The translations under genes and the position numbers were made by a program. 64,000 nucleotides of DNA from an uncultured candidatus Brocadiaceae bacterium (GTDB lineage: Bacteria > Planctomycetota > UBA1135 > UBA2386). Position 1 is the stretch's first letter, and each line of letters opens with the position of its first letter. Where the stretch lies: NCBI GenBank assembly GCA_964538915.1, contig CAZIFB010000018.1, positions 3,450-67,449 of the forward strand, in the 5' to 3' direction. Below the pieces are notes generated by a model. It searched no databases, had not been told where the DNA came from, and saw only the letters and a list, made by a program, of their open reading frames with translations. Below, piece after piece: positions 8,141 to 42,083 of the stretch.

Positions 8141-8279
8141 GCTCCCGCTCCGGCTCGGGGCATCGGTCGCGCGGCGCATCTCCTTCATGGGAGGGTCCCG
8201 GCGCGGGATGGCGACGGCCGACGCGGCGATGCCATGGCGGCTCCCCGACAGGCGCTCAAGTGACCACCGTCCTAGTCCG

Positions 8280-27662: not shown

Positions 27663-28385
27663 TCACCGCACGCCGAACTCGTCCTGCAGGATCTTGCGCA
27701 GTTCGAGGAAGTCGCGGATCTCCCAGGTCGCTTTCGTTTCGCCTTCTTCCGACGCATGGCGTCCGCTGCGGCGGATGCGCGCCGTCATCCAGCCCTCCCG
27801 GTTGCAGGGATCGATGTCGTGCGTCGGATTGTCGCCGAAGTAGAGGCAGCGCTGCGGTGTGAGCTTCATCCGCTGCAGCACGCGGCGGTACAGTTTCGGG
27901 TTCGGCTTGCTGAAGCCGACCTGGTCCGTGAAGAAGATCGCGGACGGCGTCAGGAACTCGAGCACTTCGAGGCGCACCAGCTTCTCCGCCTGCTTGATCG
28001 TGATCCCCGCCGACACCACGCCGCGCACGAGTGGCGTCTTCGCGAGCCAGCGCAGGACCTCGTAGACGTCGTCGTAGACCTTCAGCTCGCGCCACTTCGT
28101 CGCGTGGTAGGCGACGACGCCCGCGGCGACGATCACGGCCCGGTTGTGCCCTTCGGCGCTCTCCGGGCCGAGGCGGTCGAGCACCTTGTCGAAGTGCCCG
28201 CCGTAGTTGCTCGAGAACTCGGAGATCACTTCTTCGAGTTCGCGCATGGCGTCGCCGCGGTCGGCGCGCAGGCCCGCCTGGACCATGGCGTCGACGGCGG
28301 CCCGACGCGCCTTGTCGGCGAACACCGACGTCGAGAACATCGTGTCGTCGATGTCGAAGAAGATCGCGTCGAGGGCCTTCGTCAC
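27663..28385 (-). CDS. HAD-superfamily hydrolase
   Basis: Last 240 codons of ORF 27663..28964, starting at GTG (VTKALDAIFFDIDDTMF). Motif I DIDDT, motif III K (FSKPNP), motif IV FGDNPTHD. Confidence 0.75.
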   Translation of the reverse strand: MTKALDAIFFDIDDTMFSTSVFADKARRAAVDAMVQAGLRADRGDAMRELEEVISEFSSNYGGHFDKVLDRLGPESAEGHNRAVIVAAGVVAYHATKWRELKVYDDVYEVLRWLAKTPLVRGVVSAGITIKQAEKLVRLEVLEFLTPSAIFFTDQVGFSKPNPKLYRRVLQRMKLTPQRCLYFGDNPTHDIDPCNREGWMTARIRRSGRHASEEGETKATWEIRDFLELRKILQDEFGVR

Positions 28386-28894
28386 GGCGCCAGTTGTCCG
28401 CCATCGGCGCCGGGCCCGCAAGCGCCCGCCGACGGGCGGCGGAGGAGCGCCCACGCGACAGCGGCGCCGGCGATGTTGAGTGCCGCGTCCCGCAGGGAGT
28501 CGAACGTGTCGCGCGGGCCGGCTGGCCACAGCCACTGGCCGAGTTCGTGCAGCAGCGTGACCAGGAGGGGGATGCCGCACCCGAGGCACAGCAGGAGGCG
28601 GCGCCGCGCTTCGTTCGTCGCGTGGTGCAACCCGAGCAACCAGGTCGTGCAGATCGCCGTGCACAGAACCGCCAGGAAGTGCAGCGCCCAGTCGCGCAGG
28701 AGTGGATGAAGGGTGCCCAGCACCTCGGCGTGGATCAGCAGGATCAGCGCGCCGCCCGCGAGCATCACCACGAACCAGAGGAGCGGAGGGCGCGGGGGCA
28801 TCTGGCGCCGCCGGTGGCGCGCGGGGACCGCGAATGGCGAGGGACCGCCGGGGCTCCGGCCCTCCGAGTCCGTCGAGTCGTCGTCTCTGGGCAT
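28382..28894 (-). CDS. Small integral membrane protein, VanZ-like (tentative)
   Basis: 170-aa ORF with 3-4 hydrophobic segments. LLHELGQWLWPAGPRDTFDSLRDAALNIAGAAV resembles the VanZ-family motif (E..Q...PgR....D...N..G). Its stop abuts the HAD gene start. Confidence 0.5.
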   Translation of the reverse strand: MPRDDDSTDSEGRSPGGPSPFAVPARHRRRQMPPRPPLLWFVVMLAGGALILLIHAEVLGTLHPLLRDWALHFLAVLCTAICTTWLLGLHHATNEARRRLLLCLGCGIPLLVTLLHELGQWLWPAGPRDTFDSLRDAALNIAGAAVAWALLRRPSAGACGPGADGGQLAP

Positions 28895-28994
28895 CGACGG
28901 CGGGCGCGGCCAGCGATCGCGCGGGGTGGGGGGGCATGTGTCGCCCCGCCGGGCGCGGCCTCATCGCGGCCGCGCGGGTTTCCTTCTCAGGCCC

Positions 28995-31553
28995 TCAGTC
29001 TTCGCGCACGTCGGTGATGCGTGCGTTCACCATCACCATCAGGCTGCGGTTCTCGTCCGCAGTGCCCTCCTGCTTGAAGAGGAAGGAGATGAGGGGCAGC
29101 CGAGCCAGGATCGGCACTTCGGCGCGGCGTTCCTTCGTCAGCACCTGACGCAGGCCGCCCAGCAGCACGGTGCCGCCGTCCGGCACCTTCGCCGTGGTCG
29201 AGAAGTTCGTCACGGTGATGTTCGGCAGCTGCAGCGTGACTGGCAGGGTCGAACCGGCGAGCGACGTCGTGAACGTCGGGATCGGGCGCTGGAGCTCGGA
29301 CACCGTCGGGTTGAGGTTCAGGACGATGTAGCGGCGGTCGTGTTGGATGACCGGCTGCACGTCTAGAACGATGCCGTCCTGGATCACGTCGATCTTCGGG
29401 TCGGCGATGAAGGCCGCCTGCGCGACCTCGACGTCGAAGTCTCGGACGTACGCGGTCTGGTTGATCACTGCGACGTGGCCGCGCTCGCGGTTCAGCACCG
29501 ACAGGATCTGGCTGTTCATGACCTCCGCGTCCTGCTTCTTCTCCACCGCGCGCAGGATCATGTTCAGCTGCGTGTCGTCGAGGAGCGTGATGCCTGCGGT
29601 CAGGCCGCCGGACGGGGTGAGCACGCGGCCGAGGTCGCTCGTGAAGAAGTTCTCGGAGCGGGCGCGGATGTCGCCGTCGCCGCCGTCGTTGAAGAACGCG
29701 CCGGCGAGAGGGTTGGCCGCAGGGTCGCTCGTGCCGCCGTTGTCGAGGCCGCGCGACGCGTTGTCGTCGAGGCCGTTGCTGAGGTCTTCGAGGGTCGCGA
29801 CGTCGCCCTTGTTGCCGGAGCCGCCGAGGCCGCGGAAGTCGACACCGAGTTCCATCAGGAAGTTGCGCGAGATGGTGAGGAACTTCGAGTCGATCGTCAC
29901 GATCGGCGTCTGGAAGTTCCGCATGTCGGCGAGGCGACGGCGGACCAGCGCCTGCATGTCCGGGCTGGCGCGAACCGACAGGAACCCCTGGTCCTCGGCC
30001 TGGATGCCGACGCCCTCGGTCTCCCAGTACTTCGGGTCGGTGGCGTTCTTGATGTTCTCGACGAGGTCGGCGAGCTCGACGCCTGCCTTCTTCTCGTCAC
30101 CTTCGCTGCCCGTGCGCGGCGTGTCCTCGCCGTCTTCGCCGGGAATGCCCGCGATGCGCGGCGGCAGGAAGTCGGTGCGCTTGAAGATCAGGTCTTTGAC
30201 CGAGTAGATCTCGTGCTGGATCGTGCCGGCGGCCTGCGACTTGTTGCCGATCACGACGACGCCGTTCTTCACGGTCCAGGCGAGGTTCTGGCTCCGCTCG
30301 ACCATGTGCTTCAGGAAGTTCTCGAGCGTGATCGAACCGGCGAGCTCGATGACGACCTTGAGGCTCTCCCCGCTGATGATCGTGCGCGCCTCCGGCGTCG
30401 TGATGATCTGCACGCCGGTGATCAGGTTGAGGTTCTTGACGACTTCGAGGAAGTCGCCCGTCTCTTCGGTGTAGGAGAGCTTGCCGACCGGTTCGGTCCG
30501 CACCTTGTCCCACACGGCCTGGTCCTGCGGGTCCATCACGCTGCTGCCGTTCGCGGCGAGCGAACGACCCTGGGCACGCTGCCACACCGCCATGTCCATC
30601 TCGAGGACGTTGGTCTGCGGCACCTTCAGTTCGTCGGCTGCCTCGACCATCGCGCGCAGCGCCTTGCTGCGCTCCGCGATCCACGTCTCGTTCTGCTTCT
30701 CGCGCGCGGCCTTGACCGAGGCGTTGTGCATGTCGACCGCGACCTGGTTGCCCGGATCGACCTGCATCGCACGCGCCGACAGCTCCTGCGCGCGTGAGAA
30801 CTGGCGGCGTTCGAACGCGATCTGGGACTCCTGCAGCAGCCCGGCGACCTGGGCGCGGCGGCGAGCCTCCTTCTCGGCGTAGTCGGCGCGGATGCGCTCG
30901 GCGAGTTCCGCATCCTTCTGCGCCTGGCTCTGCCGCTGCTGATCGTCCAGCATCTTCTCGGCGTCTGCCTTCGCCGTCGCCACGCGCCCGGGCAGGTCGG
31001 CCCAGTCGGTGTTGTCGCGCACGCGGATCAGCAGGTCGGCCTGCCGCAGCTCCTCGATCGCACCGGCGTAGTTCTTGTCCGCGACCTGCTTCTCGGCCTT
31101 CTGGAGGCGCGCCTGCACGTCGGCGCGAGCGCGCTCTTCGCCGATGTGTTGCAGCTGACGCTGTTCGTCGGTGAACGTCACGACGCGGCCGGCGGGTTCG
31201 CCGAGTTCCGCCTGCACCGAAGCGAGCAGGCTCCGCACCTGTTCGTTCGTCGGCGAGAGGTCCTTCGCGCGGATCAGTTCGCTGCGCGCTGCTTCGAGCT
31301 GGCCCTTGCTGCGCAGGCCTTCCGCGTTCTCGATGTACTTCGCCACGAGTGCGTCGCGCCGCTGGTCGCGAACACGGTCCTGCGGGGACTGCGAGGTCGG
31401 GTCCTGCGTGCGTTCCGCCGGGTTGGTCCGCGGCGTCGCGACCGGCGGCGTTGCCGCGGTGTCGTTCGACGCTTCGTGCGGGGTCGAGCAGGCGGCGCCG
31501 AGAACTGCGGCGGTCAGGGATGCGGCGAGAAGGGGCCTTTGTTCGAGAGCCAT
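28995..31553 (-). CDS. Secretin-family outer-membrane channel lipoprotein (secretin B) with long helical N-terminal region
   Basis: 852-aa ORF. Lipobox LTAAVLGAAC|S, ~330 aa of charged helical/coiled-coil sequence, an N-domain-like region, and a canonical C-terminal secretin domain (...KVPDGGTVLLGGL...EVPILARLPLISFLFK...). Paralog of 38326..41016. Confidence 0.85.
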   Translation of the reverse strand: MALEQRPLLAASLTAAVLGAACSTPHEASNDTAATPPVATPRTNPAERTQDPTSQSPQDRVRDQRRDALVAKYIENAEGLRSKGQLEAARSELIRAKDLSPTNEQVRSLLASVQAELGEPAGRVVTFTDEQRQLQHIGEERARADVQARLQKAEKQVADKNYAGAIEELRQADLLIRVRDNTDWADLPGRVATAKADAEKMLDDQQRQSQAQKDAELAERIRADYAEKEARRRAQVAGLLQESQIAFERRQFSRAQELSARAMQVDPGNQVAVDMHNASVKAAREKQNETWIAERSKALRAMVEAADELKVPQTNVLEMDMAVWQRAQGRSLAANGSSVMDPQDQAVWDKVRTEPVGKLSYTEETGDFLEVVKNLNLITGVQIITTPEARTIISGESLKVVIELAGSITLENFLKHMVERSQNLAWTVKNGVVVIGNKSQAAGTIQHEIYSVKDLIFKRTDFLPPRIAGIPGEDGEDTPRTGSEGDEKKAGVELADLVENIKNATDPKYWETEGVGIQAEDQGFLSVRASPDMQALVRRRLADMRNFQTPIVTIDSKFLTISRNFLMELGVDFRGLGGSGNKGDVATLEDLSNGLDDNASRGLDNGGTSDPAANPLAGAFFNDGGDGDIRARSENFFTSDLGRVLTPSGGLTAGITLLDDTQLNMILRAVEKKQDAEVMNSQILSVLNRERGHVAVINQTAYVRDFDVEVAQAAFIADPKIDVIQDGIVLDVQPVIQHDRRYIVLNLNPTVSELQRPIPTFTTSLAGSTLPVTLQLPNITVTNFSTTAKVPDGGTVLLGGLRQVLTKERRAEVPILARLPLISFLFKQEGTADENRSLMVMVNARITDVRED

Positions 31554-31844
31554 CGGGTCACGCTCGGTGCGTTACGAGAGTTCTTTGGGAGCAACGGGAG
31601 AGCGATGCTCGCCTCGTGACTCGACAAGCGATTGGCGGACGACTCGACGGTGGCAGACCGTCGCCGATTCGGGGGACGCTCGGAATCGGAACCAATCGAG
31701 AGGGACTTGCCGAAGCACGAGAGCAGTCACCGTCGGCGACAGGGCGTGGCGCCGGCGGCAAGGGCCGGAACGTAGCCACGTTGGCGAGGATGCGCCAGCG
31801 GTTTCTTGCCACCGGGGGCCCCGGAATGCGGGCCCGGAAGCGAG

Positions 31845-31881
31845 CCGGCCCGCCCGGGTCGCGAGGACCGGGGCGGGCCGG
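31845..31881 (-). terminator. Strong GC hairpin ~30 nt downstream of the second ExbD gene
   Basis: ccggcccgcccgg-(10-nt loop)-ccggggcgggccgg gives 13 bp with one bulged G. It lies in the 357-nt gap between 31911 (ExbD stop) and 31553 (secretin B start). Confidence 0.4.
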
Positions 31882-31910
31882 ACACGGGCCGCGTCGCTGC
31901 GGCGAATCGG

Positions 31911-32456
31911 CTACTTGGCGCCGAGGCCGCCGCCGAAGTTGATCTCCTGGAAGCCCGCGTTCTTGCAGGCGTCCGCGGTCTTCGCGACGTCCTCGTAGTA
32001 GGTGCCGGGGTAGGCCTCGATCACGCACCCCATGAGCTTGCGGCCGCCGGTCTCCTTGTCGGGGACCATGCTCGCCGGGTTTTGCGCGATGCGCTTCAGC
32101 TCGGCTTCGACGTCGGTCAGGTTGTAGAGCGGCTTCGGGCCGACTTCCCACTTGACCTTGTGGCCGATCAGCGAGAAGCGGTAGGCCCGACCCGTGTTCG
32201 GGTTGACCTGGTTCGCCCCACCGTGCTTGTACTCGGGCGTGCCGGCCTGCTCGACGTGGATCTTCACCGACAGTTGCTCCTGCGGTTCCACGACGTCGGT
32301 CTGGCTGCCCTTGTCCTTCGGCAGGTAGGCGGGGAGCTTCGACTCCAGCACTTTGAAGTCGATGCAGATGAAGAAGATGATCATCAAGAACACGACGTCG
32401 ATCATCGGCGTCATGTCCGGCTTCACTTCTTCCTGGGCGTCGTCGAGAGCGCTCAT
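31911..32456 (-). CDS. ExbD/TolR-family protein (paralog 2, 181 aa)
   Basis: N-terminal TM motif DMTPMIDVVFLMIIFF with the conserved TM Asp. Longer periplasmic part than classical ExbD. The start overlaps the stop of the upstream ExbD gene by 4 nt. Confidence 0.85.
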   Translation of the reverse strand: MSALDDAQEEVKPDMTPMIDVVFLMIIFFICIDFKVLESKLPAYLPKDKGSQTDVVEPQEQLSVKIHVEQAGTPEYKHGGANQVNPNTGRAYRFSLIGHKVKWEVGPKPLYNLTDVEAELKRIAQNPASMVPDKETGGRKLMGCVIEAYPGTYYEDVAKTADACKNAGFQEINFGGGLGAK

Positions 32457-32995
32457 TTCTTGGCTCCCTTGTCAGGGTTCTTCTCGCCCGTCTCCTTGTC
32501 CTGTTCGGAGAGCGCCAGCTCGACCTTCCAGAACGCGATCTCGGGCTGACTGCACTGCTTCATGATCTCGCCGATGTAGTGCCACTCGGTCCACTTGTCG
32601 GCTCGGATCAGGATCGGCTCGTCGACGAGCGGGACCATCCTCGAGCCGACCTTCTCGTCCTTCAGGTGGAGCGTCTTGTTGAAGAGCCCGAGCTTCCGGA
32701 TGTCGAGAAGGAGCTGTTTGATCGGCGCGTAGTTCTTGCCGTGCTTCTTGGGGTCGTAGAAGACTTCCTTGTTGTAGACCACCGTTCCGTCCTGCAGCAC
32801 GTTGATGATCGGCCGGTTCTCGGCCGGCTTGTCGTCGGCCTCCTGGAACACGGCGCGCGGCAGGATCAGGTCCTCGAGGTTCTTCTGGCTCAGGTCGATG
32901 ACCAGCACGAAGAAGATCATCAGCAGGAACACGCAGTCGATCATGGGCGTCATGTCCATCTCGACGTTCTGCTGCACGAGCTTGTTCACGTCCAT
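32453..32995 (-). CDS. ExbD/TolR-family protein (paralog 1, 180 aa)
   Basis: DMTPMIDCVFLLMIFFVLV TM motif and a periplasmic domain (PIINVLQDGTVVYN...ILIRADK). Confidence 0.85.
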   Translation of the reverse strand: MDVNKLVQQNVEMDMTPMIDCVFLLMIFFVLVIDLSQKNLEDLILPRAVFQEADDKPAENRPIINVLQDGTVVYNKEVFYDPKKHGKNYAPIKQLLLDIRKLGLFNKTLHLKDEKVGSRMVPLVDEPILIRADKWTEWHYIGEIMKQCSQPEIAFWKVELALSEQDKETGEKNPDKGAKK

Positions 32996-33063
32996 GGGGT
33001 TCGTTTCTCCGGCTGTGGGCCGCCGCGAACGGCGGCTCCGAGGTCACGGGGAAGGGGCACCGC

Positions 33064-33783
33064 TCACTTGCCGCGGAAGCGCTCGAACAGGTCTTCGGAG
33101 ATCGCGTTGATCTCGGTCGACGCCTTGATGACGCGGTTGCGCAGCGTGTAGAAGGCGACGCCCACGGGGATCGCGACCGTGAGGCCGAAGATCGTCGTGA
33201 TGAGCGCCATCTTGATGCCGCCCGCGAGCTGCGCCGGGCTGACCGAACCGCCGGCTGCCGCGATGGCGCTGAACGTGACGAACATGCCCGTCACCGTGCC
33301 GAACAGACCCATCATCGGCGCGAGCGCCGAGATCAGCGACAGCCAGCCGATCTTCTGGAACAGCTTGACGGACTCCTCGGTCTGCATCTCGCGCAGCGAC
33401 GTCTGCATCGTCTCGAACGAGTGGCCGAGCTTGGACAGACCGGCGCCGACGACGTTCGTCAGGTAGGTCTTCTCCTGTTCGCACAGCTCGACGGCCTCCT
33501 GGAAGTTCTCGCCGTCGAACAACGCCTCGAGCTCGTCGAGAACGTCCGGCGGCGCGAGCTTCTCGCGCTTGATCGACATGAAGTTCTCGATGATCAGCGC
33601 GAGTGCCACGACCGACATCGCGATGATGAGGTAGCCGACGATGCCGGCGTTCTTGTACGCGAAGACCTCGGAGATGGTGCTCGTGCTCTCAGCGGCCGGG
33701 TCCTGCGCGAGCAGGGTCGAAGCCAGCAGCAAAGGCGCGGCGACGGCGAGAATCCGGGAAACAGACGCGTTCTTGAGGTTCAT
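33064..33783 (-). CDS. MotA/TolQ/ExbB-family proton channel protein
   Basis: Last 239 codons of ORF 33064..34296 (MNLKNASVSRILAVAAPLLLASTLLAQ signal-like N-terminus). Three TM segments with family motifs (LISALAPMMGLFGTVTGM, IKMALITTIFGLTVAIP). Confidence 0.85.
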   Translation of the reverse strand: MNLKNASVSRILAVAAPLLLASTLLAQDPAAESTSTISEVFAYKNAGIVGYLIIAMSVVALALIIENFMSIKREKLAPPDVLDELEALFDGENFQEAVELCEQEKTYLTNVVGAGLSKLGHSFETMQTSLREMQTEESVKLFQKIGWLSLISALAPMMGLFGTVTGMFVTFSAIAAAGGSVSPAQLAGGIKMALITTIFGLTVAIPVGVAFYTLRNRVIKASTEINAISEDLFERFRGK

Positions 33784-33928
33784 GGAGCGGGGACTCCTGG
33801 GACTGAGTCTCGTACGGAAGGGGAGAGGGGCGGATCGGAAAGGGGGCGGGAAGTCTGCTCGACCGGCCACGGGTGCGAAAGGGCCGATCGGCAGAAACTG
33901 ACGGGGGTTGCGGTGGCGTGCGCTCGGC

Positions 33929-35056
33929 TCACTTCGCCATCTCCAGGCGCGCTTCGGTGGCCCAGGGCGACGAGGGGTAGCTCGTGACGACGATCTGGAA
34001 GTAGGCCGTTGCGCGCTCCTTCCACGTTTCGCCTTCGCCTTCGGCGCCCAGCGCCGTGAGGCAGCGGCCGAGGAAGTAGTTCGCCTTGGCACTGGCCTCG
34101 CCGCTCGCGATGTCCATGACCGAGGCCTTGGCGAAACAGAGCTGCGCACGACGGATGTCGTTCGGCGAACCGTTCGGGCCGGCGGCCATGAAGATGGCCT
34201 GGCCCTCTCCCGCGTGGCCGGCGGCGACGAGGGATGGCTCGTTGCCGGTCGTGAGGCCGCGGAAGAAGCTCTCGGCCTTCGCGAACTCCTTCTCACCGAG
34301 GAAGGTCTCGCCCTCGCCGACGCGGGCCTGCGTCTTCAGGGCCTTCAACTCACCGTCGTCCGGCGACGGCGTGGTGAGGGCAGAGTCGACGGCCGAACTC
34401 GCGGCTTGGAACGCGCTGCGCGCTTCCGAAGTCTTGCCGTCCGCGAGCAGTGTGAGCGCGAGTTCGGACTTCGCGCGGGCGCTCCAGATCGCGCCGAACC
34501 CTTCGCGCAGTGCGCGGTCGTCGAGCTCGCGCAGCGTCGTCGCCGCGGCGCCGCCGGTGCCGGCGAGTCGCTCGGCACGTCCCGCGAGGAACAGCGCTTC
34601 CGGCGTGCGCCAGTGGTTCGCATTCGCGGCGATCCACGATTTCGCCCGCGCCGCCGCCGTAGCGGCCGCGCCCTTGTCGGCGCCGATCGCGGCGACGGCC
34701 GACTTGATCAGGAAGAACTCGGCGTCGGCCTTCACGAGCGGCCGCTCGGTCTGGTTGATCGCGTCGCCGAACATTTGGGTTGCGGCGCGGAAGTCGCCTC
34801 GCTCCATCGAAGCACGGCCGCTGATGAAGGCGTCGGGCAGGTTGCTCCACTCGATTGCCGCGACGAGGTGAGCCGGCACCTCGAACGGGTCGGCGCCGCG
34901 CTTGCCGCGAACGCCGGTGAGCAGGAACTCGGTGATCTCGAGGCCGCGCACGCGCGACCCGTCCTTCTTCAGGATCGCGTCGTTGATCTTCGGGGCCTGG
35001 GCGATGGCGGAAGCAGCGACCGTCGCCGCTGCGAGCAGGAAGGGGAGGATGCGCAT
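33929..35056 (-). CDS. Secreted/periplasmic all-helical TPR-like protein (375 aa)
   Basis: From residue 31 of ORF 33929..35146 (MRILPFLLAAATVAASAIAQA signal peptide). Ala-rich helical repeats (e.g. GDFRAATQMFGDAI, KEFAKAESFFRGL, ANYFLGRCLTALG). Confidence 0.75.
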   Translation of the reverse strand: MRILPFLLAAATVAASAIAQAPKINDAILKKDGSRVRGLEITEFLLTGVRGKRGADPFEVPAHLVAAIEWSNLPDAFISGRASMERGDFRAATQMFGDAINQTERPLVKADAEFFLIKSAVAAIGADKGAAATAAARAKSWIAANANHWRTPEALFLAGRAERLAGTGGAAATTLRELDDRALREGFGAIWSARAKSELALTLLADGKTSEARSAFQAASSAVDSALTTPSPDDGELKALKTQARVGEGETFLGEKEFAKAESFFRGLTTGNEPSLVAAGHAGEGQAIFMAAGPNGSPNDIRRAQLCFAKASVMDIASGEASAKANYFLGRCLTALGAEGEGETWKERATAYFQIVVTSYPSSPWATEARLEMAK

Positions 35057-35179
35057 CGTGGTCGGTTCGTCTCGGGCGCTCAGAGCGTGAGAAGCAATCG
35101 GTTTCGAACGCTCTGCGTGGCCGCGAAGACGGCCACAGGGGAGCAACTGAGAGCCTGAATCATGAACTGTCTCGGGCTC

Positions 35180-38050
35180 TCAGCGGTTGATCTGGAAGTA
35201 CTTGAAGAGGTTGAGTCCTTCGGTGCCGTGGTTCTTCAGGGTCGCGAAGTCGTCGGTGGCGCGGGCGATGCGATAGAACTTGTCCGCGATGTCCTTGAAC
35301 TTGCTGTCCTTCGCGGCGGCTTGCTTGGCGAACCAGTAGGCCTCCCACTGGAAGCGGTACCACTCGAGGCTGTACTTCGCGACTTCCTTGCGTTCACCCC
35401 ACGTGCGGTACTCACCGTAGTACTTCTGGTACGCCTCCGCCGGGCGGTCGAGGCCGGGGACCTTGGTCGGCGCGCCGGTCTTGCTGAACTCGAACCAGCC
35501 GCCGAGTGCGCGGCAGATCTGGCGCTTGATCTCCCACTGCGTGGGGTTCGCCTTCTCCGCCTCGACCAGCATGGTGTACGCGTCCTGGAAGCGTTGCTGT
35601 TGCAGCAACGCCTCGCCGATCTTCGGGCGAACCAGGAGATCGACGGCGTCCTTCACGCTCTTCGTCTTGTCGTCGCCGTAGAGCGACAGGGTCCGCTGCG
35701 CGACTTCGTCGACGCGCTTCCACTCACCGAGCTGCTCGTACTCGAGCATGGTGCCGATGAGCACGGCGAGCTGCGGCTTGGGCGAGGCCCCGATGTAGTC
35801 GCTGCCGAGCGCCACCAGCTTGGCCCGCAGCGCGTTGACCGCCGTGGTGGCGGTGTTGATCGCGGCGTCGCCCTTGTCCTCCTTGATCGCCTTGTCGACC
35901 TCGGCGACCAGCGACTTCACCTGGTTCTGGTACTCGCGGAAGATCTCGGTCGCGAGGCGCGAGGCCCGAGTCGGATCCTTCTCCTTCAGCTGCGCGTACG
36001 CCTCTTCGGCGCGCTCGAGTTGTCCGAGGTCGCAGTGCATGCGGCCGAGGTACTCGAGCACGACCGGGAGGTTCGATTCTCCGCCCTTGGCGAAGTTGGT
36101 CACGAACCCGCGCGCGCGCTCGATCGCCGTTGGGTACTTCGTGAGGTCCTTCGTGCGCTTCAGCTCCTCGTTGCCGCGTGCGTCGAAGTAGGCCATGGTC
36201 ACCTGCGTGTACTCTGCTTCGGCGGCGGAGACTTCGCGCACCTGGGCCTTGCCGGTGTCCTTCGGGTCGAGCGCGTTCGCCGCGGCCCACGCCGCGTAGT
36301 CGGCGAGCACCTTGCGTGCACTGTCGAAGTCGCCGAGGTTGCAATACGCCTTCGCGATGCGTACCTGCGCCTGCTCGTAGAACAGGAAGTCCGGGGTGAT
36401 CTTCTTGTACTCCGCGATCGCCTCGACGAACTTCTTCTCCGCGAACTGGTCGGTCGCGGACTTCCAGAACAGCTTGCTGCCGACGGAAGAACCGCCGTAG
36501 TCGCCGACGAGACGGCTCGCGGCGTCGATCGTCGGAGTGAAGAAGGCGTCGTTCTTGGTCTGGCGCTTCAGCGCCGTGATCGCCCGGTCGAGAACGTCTG
36601 CGACATCGGCCGCCTTCTCCTTGTCGTCCTTGGCGAAGTGCTCGAGGCCCTGCGACAGCGCGAGCACGCTCTCGAGGCTGCGACCGCTGGCGCCGAACGC
36701 CTGGCCGAGCATCTGGTAGGCGTCGAGTCCGATCGCCTTCTGCTCCTCGGGGGTCAGCGCGCCGATCGCCCGCCGCAAGCCCTTCACGGCTTCCTCGTAG
36801 TTCTTGTTCTGGTACTCGCCCTTGCCGATTTCGAAGAGCAGCTTGCCGGAGACGAGCGAGCTCTGCGCCGCGAGGATGTCGCGCAGCGCCGCTTTTGCCT
36901 TCACGCCGACGAAGTCCGCAGGGTGCTTGTCGTTGATGCGCTGCGTCATCGCGAGCGCGGCGGCGACCTTCTTCGGGTCGCCCGACTCGGCGAGGAAGCG
37001 ACTCTCCGCGAGCAGCATCAGGTGGCCGTGCTCGTCGCTGACGACGTCGAAGATGTCCTTGCCCTTCTCGCCGTACGCCTCCATGTCCTTGCGGAACTGG
37101 GCGAAGAGCTCGGCGGTGCCGGGAGCGCCCTCCTTGATCATGACCTCGCCGGTGCGCACGTAGACTTCCTGCATCATCTCGAACAGGAAGGCCGCCATTT
37201 CGCCGGACAGGCCGAGTTCGTCGGCCTGCTGCAGCGAGTTGCCGATCGAGAGCGTGGTGCCCTTGTAACTGTCGATCGCGGCGGGAATGTCACCAGCCAC
37301 CTCGCGGCACTGCGCGATCTCGAAGAGTCCGCGCAGGCCGAGCGCCGTTTCTTCGCCGGCTTCGAGGACCATCTCCGACAGGTCGTCGATCGACGCCTGG
37401 ATCAGCACCCCGCGATCGGCCTTGACCGCGCGCGCCCGCTCGCGCGACAGGACGCCGCGTCGCATCCAGAGCACGAGGTACTCGGTGCGCTTCTGATCGT
37501 CCGAGATCTGCGGCTTCAGGATCTCCATCACCTTCGTGCAGGCGTCGATCCCGACCTTGAAGACTTCGGCAGCCTCGTCTTCGAGTTCCTTCACGCGCTC
37601 CGGTGCGGTCTCGCGCGCGATCTCGAGTTCCTCGATGAGGAACTGACCGAACTCCTGCGACGCATTCGCGAGCGTGCCGCGCGCGCCCATCTGCACTGCG
37701 GGATCCGACGACCGCTCGACGAGTTCCTTCGACTTGTCGATCGCCTCCTTGAACAGCGTGCGCTGCTGCGCGCGGTCGCTCCGTGAGCGGGCGCCGTAGT
37801 AGGACACCTCGACGCCGAGCTGCGCGATCTTGTCCTGGTCCGCCGCGCCGCGGAACTCCGACGCGAGCCGGTCCGCCTCCTCCTTGGCCAGTTCGATGAA
37901 ACGCATCTCCCGGGCGAGGGCGCGCACGAAGGCGATCTCCCGGTCGAGCTTCTGCTGCTGCGCGAACGCGAGCGGGGACAACGAACCGAGGGCCAGGATC
38001 AGCAGGGGGGCGTTGATGCCGACTCGACGTCGGCTGGCACGGCAGCTCAC
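35180..38050 (-). CDS. Large secreted/periplasmic helical-repeat (TPR/Sel1-like) protein (956 aa)
   Basis: Real part of ORF 35180..39427, starting at GTG 38050 (M/VSCRASRRRVGINAPLLILALGSLSPLAFA|QQQ signal peptide). Degenerate TPR-like units (YEEAVKGLRRAIG, FVEAIAEYKKI, LERAEEAYAQLKEKDP, FQDAYTMLVEAEKANP). Confidence 0.8.
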   Translation of the reverse strand: MSCRASRRRVGINAPLLILALGSLSPLAFAQQQKLDREIAFVRALAREMRFIELAKEEADRLASEFRGAADQDKIAQLGVEVSYYGARSRSDRAQQRTLFKEAIDKSKELVERSSDPAVQMGARGTLANASQEFGQFLIEELEIARETAPERVKELEDEAAEVFKVGIDACTKVMEILKPQISDDQKRTEYLVLWMRRGVLSRERARAVKADRGVLIQASIDDLSEMVLEAGEETALGLRGLFEIAQCREVAGDIPAAIDSYKGTTLSIGNSLQQADELGLSGEMAAFLFEMMQEVYVRTGEVMIKEGAPGTAELFAQFRKDMEAYGEKGKDIFDVVSDEHGHLMLLAESRFLAESGDPKKVAAALAMTQRINDKHPADFVGVKAKAALRDILAAQSSLVSGKLLFEIGKGEYQNKNYEEAVKGLRRAIGALTPEEQKAIGLDAYQMLGQAFGASGRSLESVLALSQGLEHFAKDDKEKAADVADVLDRAITALKRQTKNDAFFTPTIDAASRLVGDYGGSSVGSKLFWKSATDQFAEKKFVEAIAEYKKITPDFLFYEQAQVRIAKAYCNLGDFDSARKVLADYAAWAAANALDPKDTGKAQVREVSAAEAEYTQVTMAYFDARGNEELKRTKDLTKYPTAIERARGFVTNFAKGGESNLPVVLEYLGRMHCDLGQLERAEEAYAQLKEKDPTRASRLATEIFREYQNQVKSLVAEVDKAIKEDKGDAAINTATTAVNALRAKLVALGSDYIGASPKPQLAVLIGTMLEYEQLGEWKRVDEVAQRTLSLYGDDKTKSVKDAVDLLVRPKIGEALLQQQRFQDAYTMLVEAEKANPTQWEIKRQICRALGGWFEFSKTGAPTKVPGLDRPAEAYQKYYGEYRTWGERKEVAKYSLEWYRFQWEAYWFAKQAAAKDSKFKDIADKFYRIARATDDFATLKNHGTEGLNLFKYFQINR

Positions 38051-38325
38051 GGGCAGACTCCGGGATTCGGGACAGCGTGGGATCGGTCGCACGGGCGCGT
38101 CCGGGGAGACGGGGCGTCCGTACACACAGCGCGGCCGGTGGGGCTCCGGGCGCGCTGCAGAGGGGGAAACGGCGAGCATAGCGAAGCGTTCAGTCGATCC
38201 AACAGCTCGCACGCCGCGCGGGTGGGGGACGGAAACGACCGCGGCCGCCGTTCCCCGAGGGAAGGGCGGCCGCGCGGCGCCTGCGGACCCCGCTGTCCGC
38301 GGGTCGGGATGGGGCGACTCTCGCC

Positions 38326-41016
38326 TCAGCGACCCGTGTTCGCCAGGGCGGCGGAGATCGCGGCGCCGGTCGGCTCGTGCTCGTCCATCAGCACGATGTT
38401 GGCGTGGATCAGGATCAGGATCTTGCGGTTCTGCACCGAGGTCCCGTTGCGGCTGAACAGCCAGCCGAGGCCGGGCAGGCTGCCGAGCAGCGGCACCGAC
38501 GAGCGCAGGTTCTGCCGCTCCACGAGGCGCATGCCGCCGAGCATCATCGTTCCGCCGTCGGGCATCGTGACGGTCGTGCGCACGCGCTGCAGCGTGACTT
38601 CGGGCAGCTGGATCGAGATCGGGTTGCCGACGCCGAGGGTCGTCGTGAAGGTCGGGATCGGCACCTGCAGAGTCATCACCGTCGGCTTCAGCTCCATCGT
38701 GATGAAGCGCATGTCCGCGTCGACCACGGGGCGCACGTCGAGTGCGACGCCGTCGAACACGGTGCCGACCACCGGGTTCGCGACTGCGGCTGCCTGGGCG
38801 ATTTCGACCTCGAAATCCTTGATGTAGGCGATGTTCCGCAGGAAGTGCATCTGCGCCTGCGTGTTGTTGTAGACGAGCAGGCGGGGCGCATCGATGTTCT
38901 CCTTGCGCTCCTGCTTGCTCACCGCGCGCAGCACGACCTCGACTTCGGTGTCGTCGAGGAACGCGTACTGCAGCGACAGGCCGCCGGCGTTCGTCAGGCC
39001 GCCGTTGCGACCGCCGAGCGTCTGGTTGTAGAGGTTCTCGACGCGCGCCATCAGGTCGCCGTCGCCGCCGTTGTCGTAGAAGACGCCCGGCGTCGTGCCG
39101 GTGCCGACGATGCCCGGCGACGCGGCGTTCTGCTGGTTCCGCGGGCCGAAGTCGTCGAAGCCGGCGTTCGAGCGATCGCCCTGCTTCTCGAGGCCGCGAC
39201 CGGGGACGCCTTGCGATGCCTGGTTGCCGAGACCGCGCAGGTCGATGCCCACGTCCTCGAGGAAGCTGTCCTCGACCGTGAGGAAGCGCGCTTCGACGTC
39301 GATCTGGATGCCGACGTGGCGCCGCAGTTCGCGGAGGAGGTGGTCGACCGCGACGTGCGTCTCGCCGTCGGCGCGGATGTAGAGCACGCCGTTCTGCGGC
39401 GTGATCGTGAACGGCGCGCCGTCCCACTTGTCCGTCGCGACCGTCGACTTGATGAGGTCCACGAGGCGGCCTTCGTCGACCAGCGTCGGCGGCGCTTCTT
39501 CTTCCGGCGGCTGGAACACCGGGTTGTCGTCACCCGGCGTCTGCAGGCGCAGGTTCGGGCCCGGGGTGCCGCGCACGCCCATCACGAGATCCTGCACCTT
39601 GTAGTTCTGCAGGCGCAGCGTGCCGATCGCGTTCGTCGGGCTGACCAGGTGCACCAGCGCGTCCTTCACCTTGTAGGCGACGCCCGTCTGGGCCTGGATC
39701 GCGCGCAGTGCGTCACCGACCGAGCGGCGGGTGAGCCGGAACTCGGTGAGCGTCGTCTGCTCCGCCGGCATCTCTTTGACCTCGGGAGTCACGTAGAACG
39801 TGACGCCGGTGAGCTGCCCGTAGTAGGCGGCCCAGTCCTGCACCGTCGCGCTCGCGAACGTGTGCTCGAGCACCGTCTCGTTGAGGCGCTTCAGCACCTC
39901 CTGGTTGTCCGGCGACTCGATCTCGTCGACCGACGTGTACGTCGACGGCTTGCGCGACGCGACCTCCGACCAGCGCTGCGGGTCGAACACGACCGACGCG
40001 GTCTGCGGCACGAGGCTGTGCTGCAGCTCGAGGAAGGTCTTGTTCCACTCCGTGCGCCAACGTTCACGGCTCGTGTCGAGCGCCTGGTTGTGGCGCGCGC
40101 GGTCCGCCAGTTCGCGCAGTTCGAGGGCGACCGGGTTGGCCGGGTCGAGCATCAGCGCCTGGTCGACGAGGGCCACCGAGCCGGTGTAGTCGTTGTTCTG
40201 GAAGCGGACGTTCGCCTGCTCGAGCAGGCGCGTGACCTTGCCTTCGCGCTGGATCTCACCCTCGCGACGGATGCGGTCGATCTCCGCCTGCGACTTCATC
40301 GTCAGGCTGTCGAGCGCGGCCTTCTCGGCCTTGGCCTTCTGCTCGCGGGCGTCGGCGAGTGCGGCCTCGGTCTCCTTGCGCAAGGTTTCGTTCGCCTGCA
40401 CGTAGATCGAGAAGCGCATCGTCGTGGCGGCGCGCTCGAATGCGTCGATCGCGCGGCCGTAGTTGCCCTGCGACATGAACGCGCGGCCTTCCTGCATGTC
40501 GCGCTCGACGATCGCACGTTCGCGCTCGAGCTTGATGCGCTCGAGAAGGACCGTCTCCGTCACGCCCTGGCGACCGGTTTCGCCTTCGCCCAGCGAGTCG
40601 CCGAGGATCTGGTTGCAGCGCTGCAGGATGTCGCGCGCTTCCTTGTTGTCGTTGTCGAGTTCGAGCGCGTAGGCGGCTTCGTTGCGCGCATCCTCGAAGA
40701 GGCGCAGGTCGAGCGACGCCCGCGCGTTCTCGACCGCCTTGCGGACGATCGCGGCGCGGTCGCCGGGGCCCTGACCCTGCGGATCCTGGCCTTGCCGCCG
40801 CGCACTCGCGTCGACCGGCGTGCCGCGCCGATCACCGGTTGCGGAGCGAGCAGGTCCGCGTTCGTTCGTCGGCGCCGAACTCGTCATCGGGGCGCCGTCG
40901 TTGGCGTTCTTGTCGAACTCCGAGACGTTCTCGGACGGCGTACCCGAACACGCTGCGAGGGCCAGCAGGGACGATGCACACAAGCCGCGCAAGCGCAGGG
41001 TCTGAACCTTGATCAT
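38326..41016 (-). CDS. Secretin-family outer-membrane channel lipoprotein (secretin A) with long helical N-terminal region
   Basis: 896-aa ORF. Lipobox SLLALAAC|S, a charged helical N-terminal ~330 aa, and a C-terminal secretin domain (...TMPDGGTMMLGGM...SVPLLGSLPGLGWLFS...). Shares NGGDGD(L/I).AR.EN and IPTFTT(T/S)L blocks with secretin B. Confidence 0.85.
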   Translation of the reverse strand: MIKVQTLRLRGLCASSLLALAACSGTPSENVSEFDKNANDGAPMTSSAPTNERGPARSATGDRRGTPVDASARRQGQDPQGQGPGDRAAIVRKAVENARASLDLRLFEDARNEAAYALELDNDNKEARDILQRCNQILGDSLGEGETGRQGVTETVLLERIKLERERAIVERDMQEGRAFMSQGNYGRAIDAFERAATTMRFSIYVQANETLRKETEAALADAREQKAKAEKAALDSLTMKSQAEIDRIRREGEIQREGKVTRLLEQANVRFQNNDYTGSVALVDQALMLDPANPVALELRELADRARHNQALDTSRERWRTEWNKTFLELQHSLVPQTASVVFDPQRWSEVASRKPSTYTSVDEIESPDNQEVLKRLNETVLEHTFASATVQDWAAYYGQLTGVTFYVTPEVKEMPAEQTTLTEFRLTRRSVGDALRAIQAQTGVAYKVKDALVHLVSPTNAIGTLRLQNYKVQDLVMGVRGTPGPNLRLQTPGDDNPVFQPPEEEAPPTLVDEGRLVDLIKSTVATDKWDGAPFTITPQNGVLYIRADGETHVAVDHLLRELRRHVGIQIDVEARFLTVEDSFLEDVGIDLRGLGNQASQGVPGRGLEKQGDRSNAGFDDFGPRNQQNAASPGIVGTGTTPGVFYDNGGDGDLMARVENLYNQTLGGRNGGLTNAGGLSLQYAFLDDTEVEVVLRAVSKQERKENIDAPRLLVYNNTQAQMHFLRNIAYIKDFEVEIAQAAAVANPVVGTVFDGVALDVRPVVDADMRFITMELKPTVMTLQVPIPTFTTTLGVGNPISIQLPEVTLQRVRTTVTMPDGGTMMLGGMRLVERQNLRSSVPLLGSLPGLGWLFSRNGTSVQNRKILILIHANIVLMDEHEPTGAAISAALANTGR

Positions 41017-41222: not shown

Positions 41223-42083
41223 TCAAGGATGGTTCGGCCCTGGCTTTCCGGGCACTTCGGGCAGTCCGAGCAGGCGGTTCACCCGCTTGATGTCGTCCCA
41301 CGTCTCGCGCTTGTGCGAGGGGTCGCGCAGCAGGTAGGCGGGGTGCCAGGTGACGATCACCGGGGTCCCGTGGAAGTCGAGTGTCTGGCCCCGGAGGGCC
41401 CGGGTCGGCGCGCTGGTTCCGAGCAGGTTCTGGGCGGCGACCCGGCCGAGGCACACGATCACTTCCGGCTTCAGGATCTCGATCTGCCGCCGCAGGAAGG
41501 GCAGGCAGGCGGCGACTTCGTCGGGCTCCGGCTCGCGGTTGTTCGGCGGCCGGCACTTGTTGACGTTCGCGATGTAGACGTCGGCGCGCGCCATTCCCAT
41601 TGCGCCCGCGATGATCTTGTCCAGGAGCTGGCCCGCCGGCCCCACGAACGGCCGCCCTGTCTTGTCTTCCTGCATGCCGGGCGCTTCGCCGACGAAGAGC
41701 ACTCGCGGCGTCGGGTTGCCTTCGCCGAACACGACGCACGTCCGTCCGGTGTGGAGCTTGCACCGGGTGCACGGCATGACCTCGGCGCGCAGCGCCTGGA
41801 GCGGTTCCGCGGCAACGGCGGCGGCCGGTGGGGCGACGGGGCCCGCCACGGGTGGTACTGCGCGGGGCGCGGGCGGCGGCGTCGCCATCGGTGGCGCTGG
41901 CACAGGCCGTGGCCGGGGCAACGGCGGGGGCGACGGCTGGGGCGGAGGAAGCGGGCGCCCCTTCGGCGTTGGGGCGCCCGCATCCGGCGCCCGTTCGGCC
42001 CGCGCGACCGGCACATGCATGTCGCTGCCGTACGCTGCGGCGAGCCGCTCGAGGTGCTGCAGCAACGGGTCGGGCGCGGTCAC
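41223..42083 (-). CDS. Uracil-DNA glycosylase, family 4, with Pro/Ala-rich N-terminal extension
   Basis: 286-aa ORF. C.RC.L Fe-S Cys motif, GEGNP...FVGEAPGMQEDKTGRPFVGPAGQLL, and HPAYLLR near the C-terminus. Confidence 0.85.
   Translation of the reverse strand: MTAPDPLLQHLERLAAAYGSDMHVPVARAERAPDAGAPTPKGRPLPPPQPSPPPLPRPRPVPAPPMATPPPAPRAVPPVAGPVAPPAAAVAAEPLQALRAEVMPCTRCKLHTGRTCVVFGEGNPTPRVLFVGEAPGMQEDKTGRPFVGPAGQLLDKIIAGAMGMARADVYIANVNKCRPPNNREPEPDEVAACLPFLRRQIEILKPEVIVCLGRVAAQNLLGTSAPTRALRGQTLDFHGTPVIVTWHPAYLLRDPSHKRETWDDIKRVNRLLGLPEVPGKPGPNHP

Follow-up and report, generated by a model that had tools for sequence, protein, structure and literature searches.

As far as is known, described secretin pores operate with cytoplasmic ATPases, as in the T2SS, the T4P, the T3SS and filamentous-phage export, and the ExbBD and TolQR motors act via TonB or TolA. 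In Akkermansia, Amuc_1098-1102 is an abundant envelope cluster with the gene layout amuc_1101-1100-1099-1098 (PMC5332112). Two loci there, the pilus-like MUL2 (amuc_1099-1102) and MUL1, mediate selfish uptake and mucin transport, and mucin uptake requires both; in Akkermansiaceae the genes listed next to MUL2 encode dephospho-CoA kinase, rho and 3-dehydroquinate dehydratase rather than ExbBD (PMC13174399). The gene mul1A has been termed a mucin transport gene. In Planctomycetota, polysaccharide import is said in a review-type paper to occur "via an unknown mechanism" (PMC11131199).

Here we analyse a window of 64 kb from the metagenome-assembled genome (MAG) of an uncultured member of the Planctomycetota, in which two secretin genes enclose genes for an ExbB/ExbD-type motor and for two TPR proteins. 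All seven open reading frames (ORFs) lie on the minus strand and have a strong coding bias, and independent gene calls on a public contig that is 98% identical (L001) give the same lengths of 896, 956, 375, 239, 180, 181 and 852 aa. ORF calls and Pfam scans confirmed the coordinates, strand and families that the original prediction had assigned to these genes. They are listed below in transcription order, together with two flanking genes whose membership in the block is doubtful.

41223..42083, minus strand: family-4-type uracil-DNA glycosylase (UDG), upstream flank (Pfam UDG, E = 2e-41); membership doubtful
38326..41016, minus strand: secretin A, 896-aa lipoprotein
35180..38050, minus strand: BigH, 956-aa periplasmic TPR-rich helical protein (Pfam TPR families)
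33929..35056, minus strand: P375, 375-aa periplasmic protein (AlphaFold: beta domain and TPR solenoid)
33064..33783, minus strand: ExbB, 239-aa MotA/TolQ/ExbB-family proton channel (Pfam MotA_ExbB)
32453..32995, minus strand: ExbD1, ExbD/TolR paralogue 1, 180 aa (Pfam ExbD)
31911..32456, minus strand: ExbD2, ExbD/TolR paralogue 2, 181 aa (Pfam ExbD); 4-nt overlap with the ExbD1 gene
28995..31553, minus strand: secretin B, 852-aa lipoprotein, paralogue of secretin A
27663..28385, minus strand: HAD-family hydrolase without signal peptide, downstream flank (Pfam Hydrolase/HAD_2); membership doubtful

Promoter and terminator scans of the 27-44 kb region of the window returned no more sites than shuffled sequence, and an Rfam scan of the window found no RNA family. 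Near the cassette in the clade of the window are genes for a BY-kinase-like P-loop protein and for a multi-transmembrane protein with C-terminal TPRs.

Components of the block

Pfam Secretin (PF00263) matches secretin A at residues 699-875 (E = 5e-25) and secretin B at residues 669-847 (E = 6e-25), with scores of 88.4 and 88.3 bits that both exceed the gathering cutoff of 27.5, and Pfam also identifies N-terminal TPRs, including TPR_2, in secretin A. From the lipobox cysteine (Cys23), secretin A continues through a disordered linker, a helical/TPR region (approximately residues 84-333), a putative N0-like domain (382-473) and a putative N1-like domain (515-582) to the C-terminal secretin domain with a Gly-rich insertion (approximately 592-686). 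In the AlphaFold model the N0- and N1-like regions appear as two alpha/beta domains with pLDDT values of about 80-90; Pfam STN and Secretin_N had no match in the window secretins, and PF03958 is precomputed for two homologues. The monomer model, which is poor in the barrel (pLDDT 61.7), supports the fold class of secretin A, not its subtype. Secretins in the PDB match the window secretins both in sequence and in fold, the Foldseek matches of the secretin A model being PilQ (6w6m), BfpB, InvG and GspD as well as PilF (2ho1) and RcpA-TadD (8odn), and NCBIfam returned partial matches of secretin A to MshL, PilQ and GspD.

Against the NCBIfam model Amuc_1098_fam (NF042912; cutoff 750 bits), secretin A reached a sub-threshold 94.9 bits over positions 92-796 of 805 and secretin B reached 55.6 bits at its C-terminus only. 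Judged by its sequence, secretin A is built like the Amuc_1098 family, but neither secretin is an equivalog-level member. Secretin B, an ancient paralogue with the same architecture, is 30% identical to secretin A over 862 aa (BLASTP); secretin A orthologues are present in all related loci, and orthologues of A and B can be separated in L019, L020 and L011. Both proteins carry a lipobox (LALAAC and LGAAC) whose cysteine is invariant in 12 secretin orthologues and paralogues from six lineages. The lipoboxes, the PF00263 matches and the mutual identity together bear out the earlier description of two paralogous lipoprotein secretins.

The ExbB protein, which has an N-terminal signal-like segment, matches Pfam MotA_ExbB (E = 1e-24) and resembles TolQ more closely than ExbB, both in NCBIfam (E = 6e-21 versus 6e-14) and in the PDB (TolQ 8odt, E = 6e-9, versus ExbB, E = 2e-7). 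Its motifs GLFGTVTG and ALITTIFGL align to GLFGTVWG and ALIATAIGL of TolQ with both threonines retained, and these Thr-containing motifs are conserved across four lineages. ExbD1 and ExbD2 match Pfam ExbD (E = 3e-14 and 9e-15), and the transmembrane aspartate, found in a TPMID motif in ExbD1, is kept in 10 of 10 ExbD-like proteins from four lineages. The proton-path residues of ExbB and ExbD are thus intact. Similarity between ExbD1 and ExbD2 is confined to the transmembrane segment (58% over 26 aa), and orthologous ExbD1/ExbD2 pairs are retained in relatives. The motor proteins missed every curated NCBIfam equivalog cutoff (75 bits versus 221 for TolQ-like, 27 bits versus 127 for TolR-like), neither ExbD had sequence relatives in the PDB, and an exact sequence look-up of the ExbD1 of the window gave no match.

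Both TPR proteins have AxA-type signal peptides and lack a lipobox cysteine. BigH, whose signal peptide ends in AFA-QQ, has Pfam matches to TPR_2, TPR_14 and TPR_19 and none in NCBIfam or PDB sequence searches. Relatives encode a protein of ~950-1300 aa at its position, the L011 version being too diverged for BLAST detection; a 323-aa protein of L011 had no sequence relatives in the PDB. P375 had been described as an all-helical TPR-like protein, of which the TPR solenoid (residues 75-374) stands and the all-helical character does not, as the AlphaFold model (pLDDT 90.6) places a five-stranded beta domain at residues 26-69, behind the signal peptide. Foldseek matched this model to generic TPRs (LGN) and also to the periplasmic scaffold of the Campylobacter flagellar motor (9hmf_K), a likeness that, standing among generic TPRs, we counted in favour of coupling. 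The C-terminus of P375 has weak YbgF/BamD-like matches in Pfam and NCBIfam, the match to tol_pal_ybgF covering residues 319-374 only at 33.7 bits against a cutoff of 90. P375 has 129 homologue clusters, all taxon-named ones being from Planctomycetota or unclassified-bacterium MAGs, and HMMs for BigH and P375 can also pick up other TPR proteins.

Among the 54 predicted ORFs of the window, Pfam found no match for T2SSE, T2SSF, N_methyl, TonB_C, Plug or TonB_dep_Rec, nor for TolA-, TolB- or Pal/OmpA-type families; with motif scans, these results substantiate the earlier statement that such partners are missing from the 64 kb. The relatives' loci annotated gene by gene with Pfam contained no TonB_C, Plug, TonB_dep_Rec, TolA-, TolB- or Pal-type match, and T2SSE was found neither there nor in the window. 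A GspE-type Walker A motif (GxTGSGK[ST]) occurred neither in the window nor in the 1.35 Mb of related loci; the same 1.35 Mb held no (EP/KP)n TonB-type repeat, and ORFs of at least 60 aa from the window and 99 related loci contained no prepilin motif (G-F-T-L-I-E type). A PilB/PilT/GspE ATPase, PilC/GspF or a prepilin was likewise found neither in the window nor within ~10 kb in the 99 related loci, and a search for an Amuc_1102-type pilin was negative. The Pro-rich N-terminus of the UDG ORF was considered as a TonB candidate and rejected for want of a transmembrane segment. The rest of the genome may carry an ATPase, pilins, a TonB or a PilM block.

Conservation and pilus-like relatives

The same seven-gene content occurs in many Planctomycetota contigs, and L001-L013 have an identical seven-gene order with P375 identities that range from 29% to 95%. 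Secretins A and B, a ~1000-aa and a ~375-aa TPR protein, ExbB and two ExbD proteins remain a single-strand set down to 24-30% secretin identity; this shared orientation, with no TonB or receptor nearby, upheld the original reading of the seven genes as one unit. Environmental Planctomycetota carry the gene set widely, the secretin profile being matched at E <= 1e-30 by 1556 clusters (50% identity).

In an unbiased sample of 78 metagenome loci, chosen by secretin similarity only, ExbB/ExbD genes were present in 38 and always on the secretin strand. By a rough estimate, chance would account for a few percent if a few ExbBD sets are scattered in a 6-Mb genome. The motor lay between two secretin genes (S..ExbBD..S) in 21 sampled loci, and the orders S-S..P375-ExbB-ExbD-ExbD and ExbB-ExbD-ExbD..S-S were seen in four and in one; the sub-block P375-ExbB-ExbD-ExbD is nearly constant across loci, with the P375 gene directly upstream of ExbB in nearly all that have both. 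Because three gene orders occur, the linkage is not a frozen juxtaposition, and its recurrence in dozens of divergent contigs puts the arrangement far outside what chance would give. Conservation of gene order in relatives had been set beforehand as one of the points on which the prediction should stand or fall, and the set was indeed kept there, in three orders. Part of this conservation is explained by plain vertical synteny, since the flanks are as conserved as the cassette: in most loci secretin A, or the PilM block described below, has a UDG gene upstream, and a HAD gene follows secretin B immediately in most, rearranged ones included.

Several loci have secretins without the motor. Three (L019, L029 and L052) encode a secretin pair without an ExbBD module, L015/L016 have a PilM-like gene and secretin A with neither motor module nor secretin B downstream, and L020 has an alkaline-phosphatase-superfamily gene where ExbBD would be; for the secretins the motor is therefore dispensable or replaceable. 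In five loci an NPP-type alkaline-phosphatase-superfamily enzyme with TPRs lies within the insert; the Pfam label "sulfatase" was rejected for this enzyme, as its active-site motif is the NPP-type T-x-P-x-H, not C/S-x-P-x-R.

Upstream of secretin A, more distant relatives carry a PilM-like gene (L011/L014, L015/L016, L017/L018, L019, L048, L051, L054, L069, L075, L077, L081, L084, L086, L092, L093 and L099), to which the four resolved lineages add two genes for bitopic membrane proteins, the whole block directly preceding secretin A. The PilM-like protein of these relatives has a transmembrane segment and a periplasmic tail and matches NCBIfam Amuc_1101_fam (E = 1e-23, 84 bits, short of the cutoff of 650), TIGR pilM (E = 5e-14) and PilM in the PDB (2ych, E = 1e-13). 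No PilM/GspL-type gene is present in the 64-kb window, and in the clade of the window the locus lacks the PilM block. A MamK-like gene was rejected as a PilM candidate, as it encodes a genuine MamK-family actin and lies on the other strand. The original prediction had held that the block has no T4P partner and maps onto no described system; the PilM-like block in relatives and the likeness of secretin A to Amuc_1098_fam speak against this. Because relatives encode an Amuc_1101-like PilM and secretin A is of the Amuc_1098 type, the apparatus is a derivative of a PVC-type pilus-like system (Akkermansia MUL2) rather than an orphan, one to which a second secretin, TPR scaffolds and a proton motor have been added.

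Possible coupling of the two modules

We consider it an even call that the block is one functional trans-envelope unit in which a pilus-like secretin module and a PMF transducer are coupled via TPR proteins. The first module would be a PVC-type pilus-like outer-membrane part, formed by the two paralogous lipoprotein secretins with their TPR, N0-like and N1-like domains; in more distant relatives it would include the products of a PilM-PilN-like fusion gene and two bitopic genes that precede the secretins, as in MUL2. The second, the putative PMF transducer, would consist of the ExbB/TolQ-like channel and two distinct ExbD/TolR-like subunits. The cluster encodes no TonB/TolA-type adaptor, and we therefore assign that role to the TPR proteins: via BigH and P375 the motor may act on the TPR/N0 regions that the secretins expose in the periplasm, and would either gate these pores or draw cargo through. 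By analogy with Akkermansia, the favoured cargo would be a macromolecule such as a glycan, and a PMF-assisted secretin machine for macromolecule movement is our best reading of the locus. A bolder proposal, that a 5:2 TolQR/ExbBD motor has replaced or supplements the cytoplasmic ATPase of a pilus-type PilM/N/O/P-secretin complex, to give a twin-pore, TPR-shaft PMF secretin machine with which Planctomycetota take up or release large polymers across the outer membrane, is speculative and in our judgement unlikely.

The genes might also serve two separate systems in a stable envelope neighbourhood, namely secretins of a pilus-like system whose ATPase, platform and pilins are encoded elsewhere, and an ordinary TonB- or Tol-like energiser, made up of ExbB-ExbD-ExbD and the TPR proteins, that serves uptake or outer-membrane integrity with a TonB/TolA partner likewise encoded elsewhere. 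The PilM-like block beside secretin A in relatives, which shows a pilus-type lineage, fits this view, as do the secretin pairs without ExbBD in three loci, the closeness of ExbB to TolQ, the weak CpoB/YbgF-like C-terminus of P375 and the equal conservation of the unrelated UDG and HAD flanks, which means that synteny alone is no proof of function. We nevertheless find it doubtful that two systems are present, as ExbBD remains beside the secretin pair through at least two rearrangements, always co-oriented, and sits between the two secretin genes in 21 loci; moreover, neither the window nor the Pfam-annotated loci hold a TonB_C, TolA-, TolB-, Pal-type or TonB-dependent-receptor match, and the presence of ExbBD in 38 of the 78 secretin-sampled loci compares with a chance expectation, roughly estimated, of a few percent.

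Rather less probable is export of a surface polymer, with the secretins as export pores, TPR conduits like BcsC, AlgK and PelB, and energy from ExbBD. Genes for GT2/GT4 glycosyltransferases, an ABC exporter and a polysaccharide pyruvyl transferase adjoin the PilM block in two distant lineages, L014/L015 and L086, the BY-kinase-like protein and the multi-transmembrane TPR protein lie near the window-clade cassette, and the NPP-type enzyme inserted in five loci could modify a polymer; in L014/L015, however, the glycosyltransferase genes run on the opposite strand, most loci have none beside the cassette, and the Akkermansia MUL loci, the closest relatives to have been characterised, are tied to uptake. 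We know of no polysaccharide pathway that uses a secretin. TPR pilotins commonly adjoin secretins (PilF, PilW, Tgl, TadD), and the Foldseek matches of secretin A to PilF (2ho1) and RcpA-TadD (8odn) would suit TPR proteins that act as pilotins or assembly chaperones of the PilF/PilW, Tgl or TadD-like kind, ExbBD then serving secretin assembly or envelope homeostasis only. This strikes us as very improbable: BigH (956 aa) and P375 (375 aa) are non-lipidated and periplasmic, whereas small lipoproteins are, to our knowledge, what the TPR pilotins characterised from T4P and Tad systems (PilF/PilW, Tgl, TadD) have proved to be; the secretins, as lipoproteins with TPR regions of their own, look self-piloting; and the conserved proton motor would be left without a reason.

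This conserved cluster sets a motor and TPR scaffolds between two secretin genes and has neither ATPase nor pilin nor TonB close by, which points to another means by which a secretin could be energised or gated. The cluster is a concrete candidate for the movement of large glycans across the PVC outer membrane, with a link to the genetically tractable Akkermansia MUL loci, and, if the reading as a PMF-powered twin-secretin machine is true, it would be a candidate molecular basis of "selfish" macromolecule uptake in PVC bacteria. Literature searches for secretins with ExbB/ExbD in Planctomycetes returned nothing relevant, and we did not find the combination described.

Comparison with described systems

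With T4aP PilMNOPQ and T2SS GspC-L-M-D the locus shares a secretin with putative N0/N1-like domains, and relatives add an actin-like PilM carrying a fused transmembrane segment and periplasmic domain (GspL-like), two bitopic proteins and then the secretin; it differs from both in its two paralogous liposecretins and in the proton motor embedded in the cluster. The likeness to TonB-ExbB-ExbD and Tol-Pal lies in a stator family of the 5:2 type with intact proton-path residues, in the CpoB-like TPR motif at the C-terminus of P375 and in the two ExbD paralogues, ExbB-ExbD1-ExbD2 being carried by many operons; the difference is that secretins and soluble TPR proteins are encoded beside the motor here. 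In the Myxococcus Agl-Glt/Nfs machineries and the Campylobacter PflA/PflB scaffold, a TolQR/MotAB-type motor is linked to outer-membrane parts by large periplasmic TPR proteins, a likeness of design only; secretins are the outer-membrane partners here, and no TonB-like GltG/GltJ proteins were recognised.

The Akkermansia MUL loci come closest. Like MUL2, the locus has a PVC secretin with an N-terminal TPR region, which aligns to most of the Amuc_1098 model, and relatives reproduce the amuc_1101-1100-1099-1098 layout with a PilM-like gene, two further genes and then the secretin. MUL1 presumably contains TPR and ExbBD-like genes. The distance from MUL2 is seen in scores far under the family cutoffs (95 versus 750 bits for the secretin, 84 versus 650 for the PilM-like protein) and in the two secretins, the two large TPR proteins and the internal ExbB-ExbD-ExbD set that the planctomycetotal locus combines.

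The seven-gene cluster and its neighborhood

Because the window has a G+C content of ~70%, raw open reading frame (ORF) lists were noisy, and we therefore called genes by codon bias. The seven minus-strand genes of the original prediction were the top-scoring calls of their region, and Pfam bore out the family proposed for each. Secretin A (896 aa) and secretin B (852 aa), the first and last genes in transcription order, specify C-terminal secretin domains; the 956-aa protein between them (big TPR) matches TPR families and is followed by a 375-aa protein (P375); the 239-aa protein (ExbB) is a MotA_ExbB protein; and the 180-aa and 181-aa proteins (ExbD1 and ExbD2), whose genes overlap by 4 nt, are both ExbD. 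Independent gene calls on a public contig 98% identical to the window (L001, GCA_041917415.1) give products of exactly equal length. Sequence inspection identified a lipobox in each secretin, AxA signal peptides lacking a lipobox Cys in both TPR proteins, and a signal-like N-terminus in ExbB. P375 had been described as all-helical; a TPR solenoid is indeed present, but the protein is not purely helical, as its AlphaFold model (pLDDT 90.6) places a five-stranded beta domain (residues 26–69) ahead of the solenoid.

Window genes neighboring the cluster
24855-25619, plus strand: BY-kinase/ParA-like P-loop protein with NCBIfam tyrosine autokinase matches
25619-26404, plus strand: 261-aa coiled-coil protein
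26448-27518, plus strand: MamK-family actin (NCBIfam MamK, 405.6 bits, cutoff 400; PDB MamK 5jyg, E 9e-72)
27663-28385, minus strand: cytoplasmic HAD hydrolase, downstream flank
41223-42083, minus strand: family-4-type uracil-DNA glycosylase (UDG), upstream flank
42093-43190, minus strand: conserved 365-aa protein matching no known family, divergent from the 946-aa gene
43273-46113, plus strand: 946-aa protein combining an extended multi-transmembrane N-terminal half with TPRs at the C-terminus; PrsT/PEP-CTERM TPR matches are weak

The P-loop/coiled-coil/actin trio also lies beside the HAD gene in related loci L005, L006, L008-L010, L012 and L013, with only the actin detected in L024; no other protein of the region is as conserved as this actin (73-90% identity). 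The window's clade conserves both the 946-aa and the 365-aa genes upstream of UDG. Secretin B and HAD are 609 nt apart in the window (28386-28994) but 386 nt apart in L001 (15611-15996); the longer spacer includes a 139-aa hydrophobic ORF (28382-28801) that is uncalled in L001.

Conservation and rearrangement of the cluster

Conservation of gene order in relatives, on which the original prediction had depended, was found in L001-L013: the order of the seven genes is identical in L003-L011, which were fetched via P375, and in L001, L002, L012 and L013, with P375 identity ranging from 95% down to 29%. The UDG and HAD-hydrolase flanks are likewise conserved, making synteny a weaker case for function, and we therefore sought more distant relatives. 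The two flanks enclose the set even at 25-35% secretin identity and persist around rearranged interiors (L019-L087; for example, the gene strings U-S-S-h and B-D-D-S-S-h), the UDG being of the family-4 type.

A secretin profile searched against 1.84 billion representative proteins matched 1556 clusters at E <= 1e-30, and the best 150 matches, mostly near-full-length, all fell below E 1e-102, indicating that this architecture of TPR, N0-like, N1-like and secretin domains defines a large family. Ten sampled members all came from Planctomycetota metagenome-assembled genomes (MAGs) or unnamed metagenome contigs, and those homologues of secretin A and P375 that bear names all belong to uncultured Planctomycetota or unclassified-bacterium MAGs; every carrier identified to date is uncultured. 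Of the cassette-bearing contigs L005, L006 and L007, two are labelled "candidatus Brocadiaceae" in their deposits and the third "Luminiphilus sp."; all three fit the Planctomycetota clade of the window in gene content, and the Luminiphilus contig, at least, looks mis-binned.

To sample genomic contexts without bias, we scanned metagenome contigs using a diverse A- and B-type secretin alignment. This yielded 78 loci (24-67% identity to secretin A), and local HMMs built from the collected orthologues were run on six-frame ORFs of every locus. ExbB/ExbD genes were present in 38 of the 78, without exception on the secretin strand; for a genome of 6 Mb with a few ExbBD sets, we roughly put the expectation for chance proximity at a few percent. 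The order secretin - (big TPR - P375) - ExbB - ExbD - ExbD - secretin was found at 21 loci, and one end of the secretin-ExbBD-secretin pattern at 12 truncated loci. Four very divergent loci (L077, L080, L081 and L086) read secretin A - secretin B - big TPR - P375 - ExbB - ExbD - ExbD, and in one (L082) ExbB - ExbD - ExbD is separated by a 2.7-kb gap from secretin A - secretin B - HAD. Gene content has thus been kept through at least two rearrangements, as selection for co-expression predicts and inherited adjacency alone does not. The secretin genes are adjacent and the ExbBD module is absent in L019, L029 and L052; L015/L016 carry a PilM-like block and secretin A but lack both the module and secretin B downstream; and in L020 an alkaline-phosphatase-superfamily gene stands where ExbBD would be. 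The system has a modular build, its motor being an accessory missing from some lineages.

Canonical partners and pilus-like ancestry

The original prediction that the cluster lacks a T2SS/T4P/T3SS or TonB partner holds for the 64 kb. Among the window's 54 predicted ORFs, Pfam detected no GspE/PilB ATPase, GspF/PilC, pilin, TonB, TonB-dependent receptor, TolA, TolB or Pal, and motif scans of the window found neither a prepilin signature nor a GspE-type Walker A. The other genes of the window are unrelated (flagellin, an ECF sigma/FecR pair, hutH/hutU, PNPase, FeoAB, a PilZ protein and the MamK-like actin). Motif scans of 1.35 Mb found no pilin motif, GspE/PilB Walker A or TonB-like repeat even in PilM-containing loci, and precomputed Pfam tables of annotated related loci list no T2SSE, T2SSF or TonB_C.

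Distant relatives link the cluster to pilus-like machinery. In L011/L014, UDG and secretin A are separated by three additional genes. The product of the first, 535 aa long, matches the "PilM-like pilus complex protein" family Amuc_1101_fam of NCBIfam (E 1.3e-23), TIGR01175 pilM (E 4.9e-14) and PilM of Thermus in the PDB (2ych, E 1.4e-13); as it also has a transmembrane segment (~363-381) followed by a periplasmic tail, it is a PilM-PilN or GspL-like fusion. The other two (245 aa and 323 aa) each have a single N-terminal transmembrane segment and found no match in a database search. This block is also upstream of secretins in L015/L016, L017/L018 and L019, and PilM-like matches precede secretins in 12 metagenome loci. 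Secretin A itself aligns with positions 92-796 of 805 in the Amuc_1098 family model, far under the curated cutoff. Akkermansia Amuc_1098-1102 are abundant envelope proteins thought to build pili-like structures (PMC5332112); amuc_1099-1102 form the MUL2 locus, which with MUL1 mediates mucin transport and processing (PMC13174399), and mul1A has been designated a mucin transport gene. The original prediction had not mapped the architecture onto a described secretion, pilus, gliding or uptake system; instead, the Amuc_1101/PilM matches and the Amuc_1098 alignment make the Planctomycetota block a relative of a PVC-type pilus-like apparatus. Across the broad clade that includes the window, UDG sits immediately upstream of secretin A and the locus has no PilM block; homologues of the three block proteins are absent from the 64-kb window.

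The motor, its possible coupling and known systems

ExbB is somewhat nearer to TolQ than to ExbB in both NCBIfam (E 6e-21 vs 6e-14) and PDB comparisons (6e-9 vs 2e-7). Its GLFGTVTG and ALITTIFGL motifs, kept in four lineages, align with GLFGTVWG and ALIATAIGL of E. coli TolQ, which carry the proton-path Thr residues. All 10 ExbD-like proteins examined retain the transmembrane Asp. The likeness of ExbD1 to ExbD2 is confined to the transmembrane segment (58% over 26 aa), and the two are old paralogues whose periplasmic domains differ, which would fit a heterodimeric plunger. A third ExbD gene follows the usual pair in L025, L032, L048, L051 and L086, and in L021 the pair is duplicated, the two pairs flanking the alkaline-phosphatase-superfamily gene.

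The set comprises two liposecretins whose periplasmic TPR and N0/N1-like regions are long, a pair of soluble TPR proteins in the periplasm and, by sequence, an intact 5:2-type proton motor; the cluster encodes no TonB/TolA-type adaptor. Secretins, TPR proteins and motor are inherited together as a set, and our leading reading, to which we give about even odds, is that they constitute one apparatus. In such an apparatus the ExbD periplasmic domains would engage the TPR proteins, these would dock onto the secretin N-regions, and proton flux would gate the pores or move cargo through them. The main rival, two independent systems merely kept side by side, we consider rather unlikely, and the bolder proposal of a proton-powered secretin machine operating without an ATPase strikes us as similarly doubtful.

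If the coupled apparatus does move cargo, the analogous Akkermansia MUL loci lead us to favor macromolecule uptake. Export of a surface polymer is hinted at by the following genes.

Genes bearing on cargo in related loci
L014/L015, about 700-8500, minus strand: glycosyltransferases (GT2-type) and ABC exporter with fused membrane domain, next to the PilM-like block
L086, 36-4651, plus strand: glycosyltransferases (GT4-type) and ABC exporter with fused membrane domain, next to the PilM-like block
L020, 7941-9824, and L021, 6525-8504 (also L037, L045 and L059): alkaline-phosphatase-superfamily gene with C-terminal TPRs, inside the insert that separates the secretin genes

The glycosyltransferase and exporter genes adjoin the block in two distant lineages, joined in L014/L015 by a polysaccharide pyruvyl transferase gene, which hints at a tie to surface polysaccharide. 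The TPR-bearing enzyme inside the insert at five loci likewise hints at export. Pfam names it Sulfatase/Phosphodiest; the sulfatase label was rejected, as the active site (inspected in L020 and L021) is NPP-type, T-x-P-x-H-A-T-I-L-T-G, not C/S-x-P-x-R as in sulfatases.

No description of a secretin-ExbBD cluster was found in the literature searched (8 million papers); its parts are known families, and its pilus-like half has a described Akkermansia relative. Periplasmic TPR scaffolds around such stators have precedents in the Agl-Glt machinery and in Campylobacter PflA/PflB, to which P375 is weakly similar, both as analogies and not homologies. Akkermansia MUL1 (Amuc_0543-0550) presumably contains TPR and ExbBD-like genes; if it does, the cassette would physically join a MUL1-like to a MUL2-like module and be correspondingly less novel.
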